Shown: positions 41,321 through 47,350 of the stretch, one piece after another | Position numbering within the stretch: the stretch's first letter is position 1 | How the letters are laid out: each line of letters begins with the position of its first letter | Assembly (NCBI RefSeq): GCF_003334255.1 | Contig: NZ_QOWU01000012.1 | Reading direction: 5' to 3' (one strand) | DNA length: 64,000 nt | From: Escherichia coli | GTDB taxonomy: Bacteria > Pseudomonadota > Gammaproteobacteria > Enterobacterales > Enterobacteriaceae | Translations under genes and position numbers: made by a program | Notes under the pieces: generated by a model | The model's database searches: none | What the model was told of the DNA's origin: nothing | The model's input: the letters and a program-made list of their open reading frames with translations, nothing else

Positions 41321-41428
41321 GATTATCTTTCCTGTTTACATATAGTTAACGTCACACCTAGTTTATGCTAACTGTCAATAACACAGCAAACGCTATTTGC
41401 GCTTAATCCGCAGACCACCGCGACAACA

Positions 41429-42378
<950 letters not shown>

Positions 42379-42404
<26 letters not shown>

Positions 42405-43107
42405 GATGCCAGCGCAGCAAGTTTGCCATCGCAAAGAGATATTTTTCGCTGGCTTCGTCGGAGGAGATGGGCGGAAACTCTGCGGTGATGCAATGCAAGT
42501 TGAGATCTGCACACCAACTGCCGAAAGAGCCAGGCGTTTCATAACCGACGCTGGTTACCAGAGGCAATTCAAACGCCTGGGCCAGCCATTCACCTAATTC
42601 GCTGTGTCTGGGATCTTCAATACAGGCCAGTGGATCGTGGAATGAGACCACCCAGGCAGGTTGAATGCGGTGTATAAGCTGGCACAGCGCCTGGGTTTCA
42701 GGTTCTGAGCCAGGTTTGTCACCTGTCAGTAATACGACATCACGTTCTTCAGCGGCGCTGTTCCAGCGATAAACCGTTTCACCTTCCTTCCAGTTCGCCG
42801 CCGGAAAGTTTCTGTTTAAATCCACACCATTAGCATTGGCCCGTAACCCCAGCTGGCAGCCGTCAGGATTCGCACACAGCACCACATGATGGCGGCGCAA
42901 AGAAGGTGTCAACGTCCGCAGAGCACAGGAGAGCGTGACGACCGAAGAGTTTTCATCACCGTGAGTGCCAGCCAGAATCAAACCACTTTCGCGGCTGGCT
43001 GCAGGGGCAGGAAACCAGATTAACGGCGCGCCCAATAATGAACGTCCGTAATGTTCTGTTCCGGGCGGAAATGCGCCGCGTTCGGCGCGTGGGCGGGTTA
43101 CGGTCAT
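42379..43107 (-). CDS. mpaA: Murein tripeptide amidase A (M14 carboxypeptidase fold)
   Basis: ORF track 42379..43167. The ATG at 43107 (MTVTRPRAERGAFPPGTEHYGRSLLG) gives 242 aa. Its 3' end overlaps ycjG by 26 nt on the opposite strand. Confidence 0.92.
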
Positions 43108-43183
43108 GATCGTCTCTGGTTCAGGAAGTATTACAGGCAGTGTTGTGCAAATTTTGCGGATTATCAAATCCTTTTCTTCAACG

Positions 43184-43372
43184 CTATGTCATCGATCTTG
43201 TATCACTTTTTTTGCCGGAAGTTGTTTGCATTTTATTAGTTGGATAGGGTTTGTGGATTTTTGCTGGCTGACGGGCAAATAAAGTTTGTTTAATGGTTTG
43301 CTTATCTGCCAGTTGATTAATCACATGGCGGGCTATCTGACCGCCAGCACCAAGAATCAGTACCTTTTTCAT
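43184..43372 (-). pseudogene. ymjC: N-terminal remnant of an NAD(P)-binding (NmrA/SDR-like) oxidoreductase gene
   Basis: The 62-codon ORF begins with a Rossmann motif, MKKVLILGAGGQIARHV, but is far too short for such a domain. Its last 15 codons are encoded by the repeat at 43203-43233. Confidence 0.7.
43203..43233 (+). repeat. Left copy of a ~30-nt direct repeat (TCACTTTTTTTGCCGGAAGTTGTTTGCATTT)
   Basis: Matches 45650-45679 with one T indel and a CC/AT difference. GGAAGTTGTTTGCATTT (17 nt) is identical in both copies. Confidence 0.85.
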
Positions 43373-43377
43373 GAAAA

Positions 43378-43443
43378 TTATCCCAGATTATTGGCAGCAA
43401 TATGCCAGGCCATATCACTATTGCGGATTTGAATATGTTTCAT
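43378..43443 (-). CDS. ymjD: 21-codon ORF between ycjY and ymjC' (MKHIQIRNSDMAWHIAANNLG)
   Basis: Its ATG overlaps the ycjY stop (TAATG), and GAGGA lies 9 nt upstream. It is too short for the ORF track. I recall a 21-aa YmjD annotated here in K-12, but the assignment is from memory. Confidence 0.5.
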   Translation of the reverse strand: MKHIQIRNSDMAWHIAANNLG

Positions 43444-44363
43444 TACAGAGTTTCCTCAAAGAACGGAGCTAATACTGAAATTGCTTCAGCCACATAGGCT
43501 TTGCCGTCATAAAGATCCATATGGTTTGCGCCTTCAACAATGTGATAGCGTTTATCCTGGCTTGATGCTCGATCGTACAGGTCGTCACTCATCCATTTGC
43601 TCCCTGCCTGGCTGCCCGCCACAATCTGCGTCGGCTGAGTCAGGTACACTTCCGCCATATGGTAAGCATCATAGGTAATAATCTGGTTAAGGCTGCGCAA
43701 AGTAGCGTAACCCGGTGCTGTTGGATACTGCGCGCGAGGGGTGTGGTAATACTCCCAGGCCTGACGCAGTTCTTCGTTCGGCGCATCGGACTCCTTCATT
43801 GGTGCCAGTGGCATAATGGCGTATTCTCCGCTGCTAATATCGCTGGTTCTGGCGTTTGAACCCGCTTCAACGTATGGCAGGGCATCAATAGATTTCACAT
43901 TGTTTTCCCAACCATTACGGAACATCGAACCAATATTGACTGCACTAACGGTACCGATGGCCTTGATGCGGCGATCCTGAATTGCAGCATTGGCTGTATA
44001 TCCTGCACCGGCACAAATTCCCATCGCACCAATTCGGGTATTGTCGACATAAGAAAGCGTTGTCAGGTAATCAATCACGGCACTGACGTCTTCAGTACGA
44101 ATGTATGGGTTTTCTAACTGACGCGGCTCGCCGCCACTTTCACCCTGATAAGATGCGTCATAAGCAATAGTGACAAATCCCTTTTCCGCCAGTTTTTCGG
44201 CATAGGTCCCGGCCGTTTGTTCTTTAACGCCCCCACCTGGGTGAGATACCACAATTGCCGGATATTGACGGGTTTCATCAAATTTTGGAGGAAAATAGAT
44301 CACTGCAGACAAAGAGATGGTTGGATTATTGCTGTTAGTGAAGCTGACTTTATTATTCATCAT
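43443..44363 (-). CDS. ycjY: Alpha/beta-hydrolase (dienelactone hydrolase / S9-like)
   Basis: ORF track 43443..44375. The ATG at 44363 (MMNNKVSFTNSNNPTISL) follows GAGGAACGGA and gives 306 aa. The nucleophile elbow is GICAG. Confidence 0.88.
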   Translation of the reverse strand: MMNNKVSFTNSNNPTISLSAVIYFPPKFDETRQYPAIVVSHPGGGVKEQTAGTYAEKLAEKGFVTIAYDASYQGESGGEPRQLENPYIRTEDVSAVIDYLTTLSYVDNTRIGAMGICAGAGYTANAAIQDRRIKAIGTVSAVNIGSMFRNGWENNVKSIDALPYVEAGSNARTSDISSGEYAIMPLAPMKESDAPNEELRQAWEYYHTPRAQYPTAPGYATLRSLNQIITYDAYHMAEVYLTQPTQIVAGSQAGSKWMSDDLYDRASSQDKRYHIVEGANHMDLYDGKAYVAEAISVLAPFFEETL

Positions 44364-44433
44364 TCCGTTCCTCATGGAGTTGTTGGTTCGTTTTAACGGT
44401 TGGTGATATCACTATAGATATTGATCATTAAGT

Positions 44434-44478
44434 TGATTAGACCCAAAATCATGATTAGACCTATCATTTAAATGATTA
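44434..44478. promoter_or_regulatory. Repeated TGATTAGACC / TGATTA motifs in the ycjY-pgrR divergent region (candidate PgrR operator)
   Basis: TGATTAGACC occurs at 44434-44443 and 44452-44461, and TGATTA at 44473-44478. The middle copy sits in ATGATTAGACCTATCAT (ATGAT-N7-ATCAT, with LysR-type T-N11-A architecture). Confidence 0.45.
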
Positions 44479-44500
44479 ATAGATTGTATGGAGATACTGA

Positions 44501-45400
44501 ATGAAGCGTGAAGAGATCGCTGATCTGATGGCGTTTGTCGTCGTTGCAGAGGAGCGTAGCTTCACTCGAGCAGCAGCCCGCCTGAGCATGGCGCAGTCAG
44601 CTTTAAGCCAGATAGTGCGCCGTATAGAAGAACGATTGGGATTGCGGCTTCTGACCCGAACCACGCGCAGTGTTGTACCCACTGAAGCGGGCGAGCATCT
44701 TTTGTCTGTTCTTGGCCCTATGTTGCATGACATAGATTCAGCCCTGGCATCCCTGAGCGATCTGCAGAACCGCCCATCCGGGACAATACGTATTACTACT
44801 GTAGAACATGCAGCAAAAACGATATTGTTACCAGCAATGCGCACATTCCTGAAATCGCATCCTGAAATTGATATTCAGCTCACCATTGATTATGGTTTGA
44901 CCGATGTCGTTTCTGAACGTTTTGATGCAGGCGTCCGTCTGGGTGGGGAGATGGATAAAGATATGATCGCCATTCGAATCGGGCCAGATATACCAATGGC
45001 TATTGTTGGCTCACCGGATTATTTTTCTCGCCGAAGTGTTCCAACGTCAGTGTCACAATTAATAGATCATCAGGCAATTAATTTGTATCTTCCCACATCG
45101 GGTACAGCAAATCGCTGGAGATTAATACGCGGTGGACGTGAAGTTCGTGTTCGCATGGAAGGTCAGCTTTTACTGAATACGATAGACCTGATCATTGATG
45201 CTGCAATTGATGGGCATGGATTGGCGTATCTACCTTATGATCAGGTTGAGCGGGCTATTAAAGAAAAAAAACTGATACGTGTTTTGGATAAATTCACACC
45301 AGATTTACCCGGTTATCACCTGTACTATCCACACCGTCGACATGCTGGCTCGGCATTCTCATTATTTATAGATAGGCTGAAGTATAAAGGTGCTGTTTAG
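44501..45400 (+). CDS. pgrR: LysR-family regulator of peptidoglycan recycling genes
   Basis: 299-aa ORF with the N-terminal LysR HTH FVVVAEERSFTRAAARLSMAQSALSQIVRRIEERLG. Recognised as YcjZ/PgrR. Confidence 0.92.
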   Translation: MKREEIADLMAFVVVAEERSFTRAAARLSMAQSALSQIVRRIEERLGLRLLTRTTRSVVPTEAGEHLLSVLGPMLHDIDSALASLSDLQNRPSGTIRITTVEHAAKTILLPAMRTFLKSHPEIDIQLTIDYGLTDVVSERFDAGVRLGGEMDKDMIAIRIGPDIPMAIVGSPDYFSRRSVPTSVSQLIDHQAINLYLPTSGTANRWRLIRGGREVRVRMEGQLLLNTIDLIIDAAIDGHGLAYLPYDQVERAIKEKKLIRVLDKFTPDLPGYHLYYPHRRHAGSAFSLFIDRLKYKGAV

Positions 45401-45649
45401 CACTACTTGCTGATACATTAATTTAATTCTTCTCTTAACGTATTCTCAGTTCCTTTCAACGTTTTGGTCATTTTTTATTCTTCGTACAATGGCGACAGAT
45501 GCTGATTATGATACCGAAAACGGGTTTGAACGTGCGAAGCCCGAACGTAGTGTTCGGAGTTCTATGTGCTTTACCGCATTTTGGAGACTATTATTTACAC
45601 TAAATCTGATTTGATATATTGATACTTAAAACATTTGATGCTTCCTTTG

Positions 45650-45679
45650 TCACTTTTTTGATGGAAGTTGTTTGCATTT
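45650..45679 (+). repeat. Right copy of the ~30-nt direct repeat (TCACTTTTTTGATGGAAGTTGTTTGCATTT)
   Basis: See 43203-43233. It lies 58-87 nt upstream of the mppA ATG. Confidence 0.85.
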
Positions 45680-45700
45680 CTTTAAGGCGAAACAAATAAT
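45672..45700 (+). promoter_or_regulatory. Candidate sigma-70 promoter for mppA (TTGCAT-N17-AATAAT)
   Basis: Hexamers and the 17-nt spacer were read directly. The -35 element lies inside the right repeat copy. This is a sequence-only prediction in AT-rich DNA. Confidence 0.3.
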
Positions 45701-45736
45701 TACGCATCAATTTTAATGTCGGTTAGAGGGAAACTT

Positions 45737-47350
45737 ATGAAGCACTCTGTTTCAGTCACGTGTTGTGCGCTGTTGGTCAGCAGCATTTCTCTTTCGTATG
45801 CTGCAGAAGTTCCGAGCGGCACAGTACTGGCAGAGAAGCAGGAGCTGGTGCGCCACATTAAAGATGAGCCTGCGTCGCTGGATCCCGCTAAAGCCGTGGG
45901 CCTGCCAGAGATTCAGGTCATTCGCGATCTGTTTGAAGGTCTGGTGAATCAGAACGAAAAAGGGGAGATTGTCCCCGGCGTTGCGACTCAGTGGAAAAGT
46001 AATGACAACCGTATCTGGACTTTTACCCTGCGCGATAACGCAAAATGGGCGGATGGCACACCGGTAACGGCGCAAGATTTTGTCTACAGCTGGCAACGTC
46101 TGGTGGACCCAAAAACATTGTCGCCATTTGCATGGTTTGCCGCGCTGGCGGGAATCAACAACGCACAGGCGATTATTGATGGTAAAGCTACGCCTGACCA
46201 GCTTGGCGTCACCGCAGTTGATGCCCATACTTTGAAAATTCAGCTTGATAAACCGTTGCCGTGGTTTGTGAATTTAACCGCTAACTTTGCCTTCTTCCCG
46301 GTGCAAAAAGCCAACGTAGAAAGCGGTAAAGAGTGGACGAAACCCGGAAATCTGATCGGCAATGGCGCTTATGTTCTTAAAGAGCGCGTAGTCAATGAAA
46401 AACTGGTCGTGGTACCGAATACCCATTATTGGGATAACGCCAAAACGGTACTGCAAAAAGTGACCTTCCTGCCAATTAATCAGGAATCCGCAGCCACTAA
46501 GCGTTACCTCGCGGGGGATATTGATATCACCGAATCCTTCCCGAAAAATATGTATCAGAAGCTGTTGAAGGATATTCCGGGGCAGGTTTATACGCCGCCG
46601 CAGCTCGGGACCTATTATTATGCGTTTAACACGCAAAAAGGGCCGACGGCAGATCAGCGCGTTCGTCTGGCATTAAGTATGACGATAGATCGCCGCCTGA
46701 TGACCGAAAAAGTATTAGGGACGGGCGAAAAGCCAGCGTGGCATTTTACACCAGATGTTACCGCGGGATTTACGCCGGAACCTTCGCCGTTTGAACAAAT
46801 GAGTCAGGAAGAACTGAATGCGCAGGCAAAAACTTTGTTGAGCGCAGCTGGTTATGGTCCGCAAAAACCGCTGAAGCTGACGCTTTTGTATAACACTTCA
46901 GAAAACCATCAAAAAATTGCGATTGCTGTAGCATCGATGTGGAAAAAGAACCTTGGCGTAGATGTTAAATTGCAAAATCAGGAATGGAAAACCTATATCG
47001 ATAGCCGTAACACCGGCAATTTTGATGTTATCCGCGCCTCGTGGGTGGGGGATTATAATGAACCCTCCACTTTCCTGACATTATTAACGTCAACGCATTC
47101 AGGAAATATTTCACGCTTTAACAATCCGGCATATGACAAAGTTCTGGCCCAGGCATCGACGGAAAATACCGTTAAAGCGCGTAATGCCGATTACAACGCG
47201 GCAGAAAAAATCCTCATGGAGCAAGCACCGATTGCACCAATTTATCAATATACCAATGGACGATTAATCAAGCCGTGGCTGAAAGGTTATCCCATTAATA
47301 ATCCTGAAGATGTGGCGTACAGTCGGACTATGTATATTGTGAAGCATTGA
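45737..47350 (+). CDS. mppA: Periplasmic murein tripeptide-binding protein (OppA paralogue)
   Basis: ORF track 45716..47350. The ATG at 45737 (MKHSVSVTCCALLVSSISLSYA signal peptide) gives 537 aa. Confidence 0.94.
   Translation: MKHSVSVTCCALLVSSISLSYAAEVPSGTVLAEKQELVRHIKDEPASLDPAKAVGLPEIQVIRDLFEGLVNQNEKGEIVPGVATQWKSNDNRIWTFTLRDNAKWADGTPVTAQDFVYSWQRLVDPKTLSPFAWFAALAGINNAQAIIDGKATPDQLGVTAVDAHTLKIQLDKPLPWFVNLTANFAFFPVQKANVESGKEWTKPGNLIGNGAYVLKERVVNEKLVVVPNTHYWDNAKTVLQKVTFLPINQESAATKRYLAGDIDITESFPKNMYQKLLKDIPGQVYTPPQLGTYYYAFNTQKGPTADQRVRLALSMTIDRRLMTEKVLGTGEKPAWHFTPDVTAGFTPEPSPFEQMSQEELNAQAKTLLSAAGYGPQKPLKLTLLYNTSENHQKIAIAVASMWKKNLGVDVKLQNQEWKTYIDSRNTGNFDVIRASWVGDYNEPSTFLTLLTSTHSGNISRFNNPAYDKVLAQASTENTVKARNADYNAAEKILMEQAPIAPIYQYTNGRLIKPWLKGYPINNPEDVAYSRTMYIVKH

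Follow-up and report, generated by a model that had tools for sequence, protein, structure and literature searches.

The window considered here is a stretch of 64,000 nucleotides (nt) from Escherichia coli (RefSeq assembly GCF_003334255.1, contig NZ_QOWU01000012.1), and our subject is a pair of direct repeats of about 30 nt, hereafter the 30-mer, located between the divergent genes mpaA (positions 42379-43107, minus strand) and mppA (45737-47350, plus strand). On its other side, mpaA is neighbored by ycjG (41397-42404, plus strand). The left copy of the 30-mer (43203-43233, plus strand, TCACTTTTTTTGCCGGAAGTTGTTTGCATTT), which has 31 nt in the window through one additional T, is separated from mpaA by a piece of ancestral spacer (43108-43202) with the conserved blocks GCAGTGTTGTGCAAA and TATCAAAT, which runs uninterrupted into the left copy, and the right copy (45650-45679, plus strand, TCACTTTTTTGATGGAAGTTGTTTGCATTT) adjoins the mppA side of that spacer (45680-45736), in which the conserved GAAACAAATAATTAC, corresponding to a -10 region, and a ribosome-binding site are found. 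Between the copies extends a block of 2,416 nt (43234-45649) with the truncated open reading frame (ORF) ymjC' (43184-43372, minus strand), which reaches through the left copy into the spacer, the ymjD region (43373-43442, minus strand), the gene ycjY for an α/β hydrolase (43443-44375, minus strand), a divergent control region with promoter-like sites (44376-44500), the gene pgrR (ycjZ) for a LysR-type regulator (44501-45400, plus strand), and 249 nt of further insert DNA from the pgrR stop codon to the right copy (45401-45649). Positions 42900-45900 of the window are 100% identical to E. coli ATCC 8739.

Both copies lie in the same orientation and bracket the ymjC'-ymjD-ycjY-pgrR block, as the initial annotation of this DNA had claimed. 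They share the exact 17-mer GGAAGTTGTTTGCATTT at 43217-43233 and 45663-45679, and the weaker similarity that had been noticed around it amounts to a match at 28 of 30 positions in most strains, the differences being GCC in the left versus GAT in the right copy. The T-run of the left copy comprises seven residues in the window versus six in most other strains. In a repeat search, this pair is the longest direct repeat of the region, and no third site for the 17-mer exists in the 64-kb window at up to 2 mismatches. The whole-genome search that had been proposed for the 17-mer shows that it is not dispersed, as queries of 42-51 nt find a median of 2 and a maximum of 4 places per genome in 5,419 E. 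coli genomes. In the approximately 1.4 Mb of enterobacterial loci that were fetched, the exact 17-mer is confined to the homologous spacer position. The many copies characteristic of a dispersed family, such as repetitive extragenic palindromic (REP) or enterobacterial repetitive intergenic consensus (ERIC) sequences, were not encountered, all other occurrences being orthologous. Neither a significant hairpin, dyad or DNA secondary structure nor a matching Rfam family was found for the 30-mer.

One of two possibilities raised in the initial annotation was that the block had been put into an ancestral divergent mpaA-mppA region, and a search for genomes with both genes adjacent and one 30-mer between them was suggested. 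We consider the relatives of MpaA, for which one genome per species was scanned and the flanking genes were mapped by tblastn, resulting in 80 loci. In nearly all of these, which represent about 70 species of Enterobacteriaceae beyond E. coli (from Citrobacter, Enterobacter, Leclercia, Lelliottia, Kluyvera, Trabulsiella, Pluralibacter, Scandinavium, and other genera), mpaA and mppA are adjacent and divergent, and across genera the empty spacer measures 177-203 nt (182 nt in Escherichia loci) and carries one 30-mer. Four other lineages of Escherichia possess the empty site, i.e., E. ruysiae, E. whittamii, the lineage of locus L010, and that of L005/Escherichia sp. MOD1-EC7003. Within E. coli itself, a contiguous empty-site match is present in 174 of 5,426 complete genomes and, after a second query, in 200 (about 4%), among them IAI39, CE10, and ST648 strains. 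If the left flank of a filled allele (L001) is joined to its right flank via a single 30-mer, a composite of 182 nt is obtained that is identical at 181 of 182 positions to the empty spacer of strain 2014C-3075 (L086). The composite of the O145 type equals the GAT-type empty spacer over the 101 nt compared, and filled alleles and the empty alleles of E. coli have identical right flanks. The exact GAT variant occurs at the empty site of at least ten E. coli genomes, which represent at least three flanking haplotypes. The single-copy junctions and the composite bear out an insertion into the ancestral region. A common dispersed 17-mer, or relatives of the block-less type with no single-copy junction, had been named as observations that would contradict this view; the 17-mer is not dispersed, and single-copy junctions exist.

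It is very probable that both 30-mers represent a target duplication that arose when, in the E. coli lineage, the 182-nt control region between the divergent mpaA and mppA received about 4 kb of foreign DNA. Such an insertion accounts fully for the two-copy state. The duplication comprises 30 bp, possibly up to 47 bp, and the insert is shown to consist of a truncated piece of a cassette for a LysR-type regulator, two hydrolases and oxidoreductases, with about 100 and about 250 nt of other DNA at its ends. The duplicated segment would begin about 60 nt before the mppA start site and include the -35 hexamer, ending shortly after it. Because the target was duplicated, the mppA promoter would have remained intact despite the insertion: judging from conservation and consensus matches, the right copy together with the ancestral right flank should form a complete mppA promoter, unsplit by the insertion, and the left copy should still be joined to an intact mpaA upstream region. 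As to how the insert arrived, our preferred guess is a recombinase-independent, illegitimate insertion of a linear fragment, during which staggered breaks may have been filled in or the template may have been switched. Later deletions of 664 and about 880 nt eroded the insert, the former ending beside the left copy by happenstance. As a side effect, the repeats and their flanks might permit the precise loss of the block or its transfer between lineages by homologous recombination.

Block-bearing E. coli have inserts of several lengths. The longest form is that of O145:H28 RM9872 (L099), where the starts of the copies are 4,009 nt apart and an insert of about 3,980 nt harbors an intact gene for a short-chain dehydrogenase/reductase (SDR), a frameshifted hydrolase gene, ycjY, and pgrR. 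In strain A1_136, the second hydrolase gene is shorter by about 880 nt, and the window has, on top of the deletion of about 880 nt, one of 664 nt, with a 3-nt ATT microhomology at its junction (43234-43237). The latter junction occurs in 2,294 of 5,426 genomes. Thus, the initial annotation was right in that the block was inserted, but its 2.4 kb are what decay has left of an insert that measures about 3,980 nt in O145:H28-type strains. The ymjD region is what remains of the second α/β-hydrolase gene after the deletion of about 880 nt, the junction lying near 43380-43385. Residues 1-46 of ymjC' constitute an SDR N-terminus and align with the full-length SDR of 212 amino acids (aa), residues 47-57 are read via the left copy, and residues 58-62 via the spacer. 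The loss of oxidoreductase similarity at the left copy, which had been noticed in the initial annotation, is true for the window, but its cause is the later deletion, not the insertion junction: ymjC ends there because the 664-nt deletion directly adjoins the left copy with its left end. Strains without this deletion have the left copy in an intergenic position, 165 nt downstream of the stop codon of the intact SDR gene. The ymjC and ymjD ORFs are by-products of deletions.

The deleted (K-12) form is also the sole form in which a promoter-like sequence directed toward mpaA, TCCACA-16-TAAAAT (43230-43257, minus strand), is present. The deletion junction and the final 4 nt of the left copy make up its -10 element, and it is a consensus match, one of 8 found versus 5.5 expected. 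In RM9872 and 75 other genomes, the left copy has GAT as well, and both copies are identical at 30 of 30 positions. Two readings fit this pair, namely that the insertion into a GAT-type spacer may have produced a perfect 30-bp duplication, or that gene conversion and precise loss of the block may have occurred later. The left-hand end piece of RM9872 (L099, 5076-5093) contains 18 additional nt (ATGCTGACTTAGATGTAA) with respect to other E. coli, and with these and its 30/30 repeats the O145:H28 form looks like the least eroded insert. In E. coli MDR_56 (L003, 6500-7810), IS421 has replaced the right copy together with most of the insert and the 5' end of mppA, which is thereby left as a pseudogene. 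This IS421 was considered as a third event at the deletion junction and rejected, as the coincidence came from using the deleted form as query.

Homologs of PgrR that are 88-89% identical are encoded in Klebsiella, Raoultella, Kluyvera, Enterobacter, Citrobacter, Salmonella, and Pantoea, in some cases on plasmids. They belong to a cassette of 5.8 kb with genes for an old yellow enzyme-type flavin reductase, a short-chain dehydrogenase, an NmrA-type SDR (212 aa), two α/β hydrolases, and the divergent LysR-type regulator. It occurs in at least seven unrelated contexts, including an integrative and conjugative element, plasmids, and an arsenic-resistance region, and more distant versions reside on replicons of Rhizobium, Agrobacterium, and Burkholderia. 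The E. coli insert shows 79% nt identity to the cassette only between the pgrR stop codon and the spacer that follows the NmrA-type SDR gene, lacks the two distal reductase genes of the cassette, and terminates in end pieces of 94-112 nt (left) and about 249 nt (right) that are unrelated to it. The GC content is 0.37-0.45 at the edges of the insert versus 0.50-0.56 on the mpaA side. A search for the donor among plasmids and the contexts of PgrR homologs gave just cassettes of about 79% nt identity, and the end pieces of 94 and 249 nt have no match in the fetched loci. Because the cassette is truncated and the end pieces match nothing found, the insert is an arbitrary fragment of an unsampled donor genome and not a complete mobile unit.

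The cassette itself has sharp ends in seven contexts (at about 2145 and 7950-7981 in L087, and likewise in L090-L095). Both ends carry hairpins, GCGAGAAG/CTTCTCGC and GTCCGCT-N10-AGCGGAC, and have the octamer AAGCGGAC in common; in L095 the right-end hairpin occurs once more, in the left flank. Gene fragments for a tyrosine recombinase adjoin the right end of the cassette in the Kluyvera-type loci L093 and L095. Together, these features suggest that the cassette might be a site-specific mobile unit.

Within the pgrR-mppA spacer, RefSeq annotates a partial pseudogene for an ‘epoxyqueuosine reductase QueH’ (45498-45572 in the window, 4643-4717 in L002, and 8877-8951 in L099). We reject this label, as no NCBIfam model matches and homologs are limited to short ORFs of Escherichia and Shigella; it looks like a propagated annotation artifact. 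A weak match to the RNA family RAGATH-10 in the coding region of pgrR (44851-44955, plus strand; 24 bits versus a gathering score of 41.2, E = 0.21) is almost certainly due to chance. Two PgrR variants with 94-96% identity (P0001 and P0004) were inspected and turned out to be from ordinary E. coli loci.

Several other explanations for the repeat pair have to be weighed. That two T-rich stretches are alike by chance, both regions being AT-rich and non-coding, can practically be dismissed, since in the shuffled window only 0.06 matches of the 17-mer are expected even if 2 mismatches are allowed, none of 100 shuffles contained two, and the single-copy empty site predicts exactly this pair. An insertion sequence (IS) or transposon was rejected as origin: the genes annotated in the various forms of the E. 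coli insert are limited to the SDR, the hydrolases, and the LysR-type regulator, with no transposase among them, terminal inverted repeats are missing, as no inverted repeat links the insert ends, and a 30-bp duplication is too long. Alternatively, the copies might be attL and attR of a degenerate integrative element, the circular form of which, carrying an attP with the 17-30-nt core, integrated by site-specific recombination at an attB site in the mppA promoter and whose recombinase gene was lost later. An identical 17-nt core with imperfect arms does resemble att sites, precise empty sites occur in several E. coli backgrounds, and in seven contexts the ends of the related cassette are sharp and carry hairpins, with tyrosine-recombinase gene fragments adjoining it in two of them. 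However, the ends of the insert are not those of the cassette, which is truncated inside and flanked by unrelated DNA, no tyrosine or serine recombinase is encoded in or beside the insert in any E. coli form, none of nine cassette loci contains the 17-mer, and the 30-mer is devoid of a hairpin or dyad. Also, a 110-nt query for an attP-like junction was not covered to 80% or more in any of 5,426 genomes, and the single attP-like hit from a metagenome proved to be a left-copy variant in a normal filled locus. As, in addition, the copies can be wholly target-like (30/30) and equal to an existing empty allele, an att origin seems highly improbable. The second possibility of the initial annotation was a shared site co-regulating mpaA and mppA. 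That selection maintains both copies as sites for one such regulator, be it PgrR or another, is likewise very improbable. The 30-mer region is conserved across genera, the left copy has kept its ancestral distance from mpaA, and almost every E. coli genome with the block possesses the two copies, but this retention within a species is uninformative on selection. In the literature found, just the ycjY/ycjZ spacer of the locus is listed as a PgrR target from systematic evolution of ligands by exponential enrichment (SELEX) (PMC5934670). PgrR cannot account for the conservation of the 30-mer, because it came with the insert, after the ancestral conservation, and genera lacking PgrR conserve the 30-mer nevertheless. 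A dyad of the type recognized by LysR-type transcriptional regulators is missing, and the sole partly palindromic stretch, CCGG, lies where the copies differ and is lost in the right copy. The cross-genus conservation finds its explanation in the -35 region of mppA, and the two-copy state in the insertion, so that the shared site was not upheld.

The promoter interpretation is based on the mpaA-mppA spacers of 71 species, in which four islands are conserved, the two near mpaA mentioned above, TTTGCATTTC, and GAAACAAATAATTAC. TTTGCATTTC corresponds to the right half of the 30-mer and, like GAAACAAATAATTAC, is nearly invariant. A consensus scan finds TTTGCA-18-AATAAT (equivalent to TTGCAT-17-AATAAT) at 45671-45700, ending 37 nt before the ATG of mppA, and the -35 hexamer TTGCAT of a plausible mppA promoter, which the initial annotation had placed within the right copy, is indeed located there (45672-45677), as supported by the consensus match and its near-invariance. 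No mapped transcription start for mppA or mpaA was found in the literature searched. The left copy is positioned upstream of the conserved mpaA-side islands and, in the O157-like strain L002, shows TTGTAT, which breaks the -35 hexamer; it is most likely an inert relic.

Some points weigh against a target duplication in E. coli as the source of the repeats. The assignment of the right copy as -35 and upstream part of a conserved mppA promoter is inferred from consensus and conservation. A target duplication of 30 bp exceeds those known from IS or transposon families. The copies differ in most strains, and the perfect pair of O145:H28 could be the outcome of gene conversion and not the original state. 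Of the close relatives, S. bongori lies outside the species covered, as do E. albertii, E. fergusonii, and S. enterica subsp. enterica, which one cluster of the MpaA homolog search had merged. Finally, similarity to the ancestral spacer drops from 93-100% over the 30 nt of the right copy to about 65% in the adjoining upstream 17 nt, of which 11 agree with it (shuffling gives a p of about 0.003, uncorrected for the choice of segment length). Such unevenness is unlike the prediction for a single recent duplication, and the right segment may derive from the diverged spacer of an unsampled donor. For the 100 nt upstream of the right copy, local alignment to the ancestral spacer remains at chance level. 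This leads to an alternative that we consider unlikely, in which the filled allele was built in an unsampled Escherichia-like lineage and brought into E. coli by homologous or homology-facilitated illegitimate recombination, GAT and the adjacent 17 nt or so being mppA-promoter sequence of that donor. Transfer of this kind is seen in Escherichia sp. E1V33 (L008), where the right copy contains the end point of an import tract, and the block differs by 21% from all cassettes sampled, its source lineage being outside the sample. However, this alternative merely shifts the origin of the duplication to another host, GAT is found in E. coli empty sites and the O145:H28 left copy as well, the right flank of filled alleles is that of the E. 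coli empty allele, and the 11/17 match is marginal given the choice of segment length.

With the target duplication as the favored explanation, the locus can be compared to known systems. As with target-site duplications of IS elements and transposons, which typically comprise 2-14 bp in IS families, the repeat is single-copy in the uninterrupted site, and removal of the insert plus one copy restores that site; in contrast, here the duplication has 30 bp (possibly 47), transposase and terminal inverted repeats are missing, and the ends are arbitrary within a larger cassette. Islands with their own integrase, delimited by attL and attR, and integrase-less cis-mobilizable elements (CIMEs) have in common with the present case that an identical core flanks the acquired block and that precise loss is possible, but here there is no recombinase, no attP junction was found, the target is a promoter and not a tRNA gene or the 3' end of a gene, and both copies can be all target. 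In naturally transformable bacteria, foreign DNA fragments are reportedly integrated illegitimately, as in experiments of the de Vries and Wackernagel type. The present insert resembles such illegitimate or homology-facilitated integrations in being a random donor fragment with no mobility genes and with junctions of no site specificity, as well as in the use of flanking homology during later transfers (L008); a clean flanking duplication of 30 bp, however, is not their usual hallmark. Like strain-specific islets of E. coli, the insert has 2.4-4 kb and a lower GC content, is present in most E. coli and absent from sister species, and has been eroded by deletions. It differs from them in that both junctions and the empty site are available at nucleotide resolution and in that it sits inside a divergent promoter region of which neither side is destroyed. 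A LysR-type box for PgrR might be suspected, as the repeats sit in the locus of a LysR-type regulator reported to control mpaA and ycjY, but the 30-mer lacks a T-N11-A dyad, is older than the arrival of PgrR, and is distinct from the reported target in the ycjY-pgrR spacer.

The feature is thus the direct-repeat scar of a horizontally acquired islet, which is of a known kind, and not a new regulatory element; no description of the repeat or of the mpaA-mppA spacer was found in the literature searched. In the well-used K-12 locus, pgrR, ycjY, ymjD, and ymjC' go back to a single acquired cassette fragment that has been eroded. PgrR appears as the resident LysR-type regulator of a mobile hydrolase/oxidoreductase cassette that landed by chance between two genes of peptidoglycan recycling, and its reported control of mpaA is probably due to read-through from the ycjY operon and does not reflect an ancestral recycling circuit. 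In about 4% of E. coli genomes and in all other genera examined, mpaA and mppA run without PgrR. The natural pairs of filled and empty alleles are suited for testing the effect of the insertion on the expression of mpaA and mppA, and the locus provides a nucleotide-resolved example of a long (30-bp) target duplication devoid of a recognizable mobility gene.

The block has moved between lineages. In Escherichia sp. E1V33, divergence of the flanks amounts to 10-14% with respect to E. coli and about 3% with respect to E. whittamii, whereas the block (region corresponding to 43150-45670 of the window) is of the K-12-type deleted form with 1-3% divergence. The E. coli-type tract begins 35-60 nt before the left copy and extends into the right copy, up to the breakpoint TCACTTTTTTG|CCGGAAGTTATTT, the part to the right being clade-type. 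Diverged flanks around a nearly identical block mean that it passed from one species into another through recombination involving very short stretches of flanking DNA. In combination with the empty alleles on several E. coli backgrounds, this suggests that the block may be lost or gained by homologous exchange around the repeats. One might go further and view the pgrR-ycjY block as a reversible, portable module, which would be precisely lost and regained through recombination at or within the repeats and would pass between Escherichia species in exchange tracts that stop inside them, as in L008, and the 30-mer not as a passive scar but as a recombination hot spot and preferred landing site for unrelated islets, an idea that arises because a cdtABC islet of Salmonella arizonae/diarizonae breaks the spacer inside the 30-mer, and which we regard as doubtful.

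In Salmonella enterica subsp. arizonae/diarizonae (L023, 5449-7677; L027), an islet of 3.1-3.4 kb with cdtA-cdtB-cdtC for a cytolethal distending toxin is located in the mpaA-mppA spacer. Its break on the mpaA side lies inside the 30-mer (after CCGGA in L027), the conserved -10 block of mppA is gone, and no flanking duplication is present. A separate rearrangement of the mpaA-mppA spacer exists in Scandinavium manionii (L072) and Citrobacter sp. OP27 (L081), where mppA is not within 8 kb of mpaA and the spacer is interrupted about 75 nt away from the mpaA start, left of the position expected for the 30-mer.

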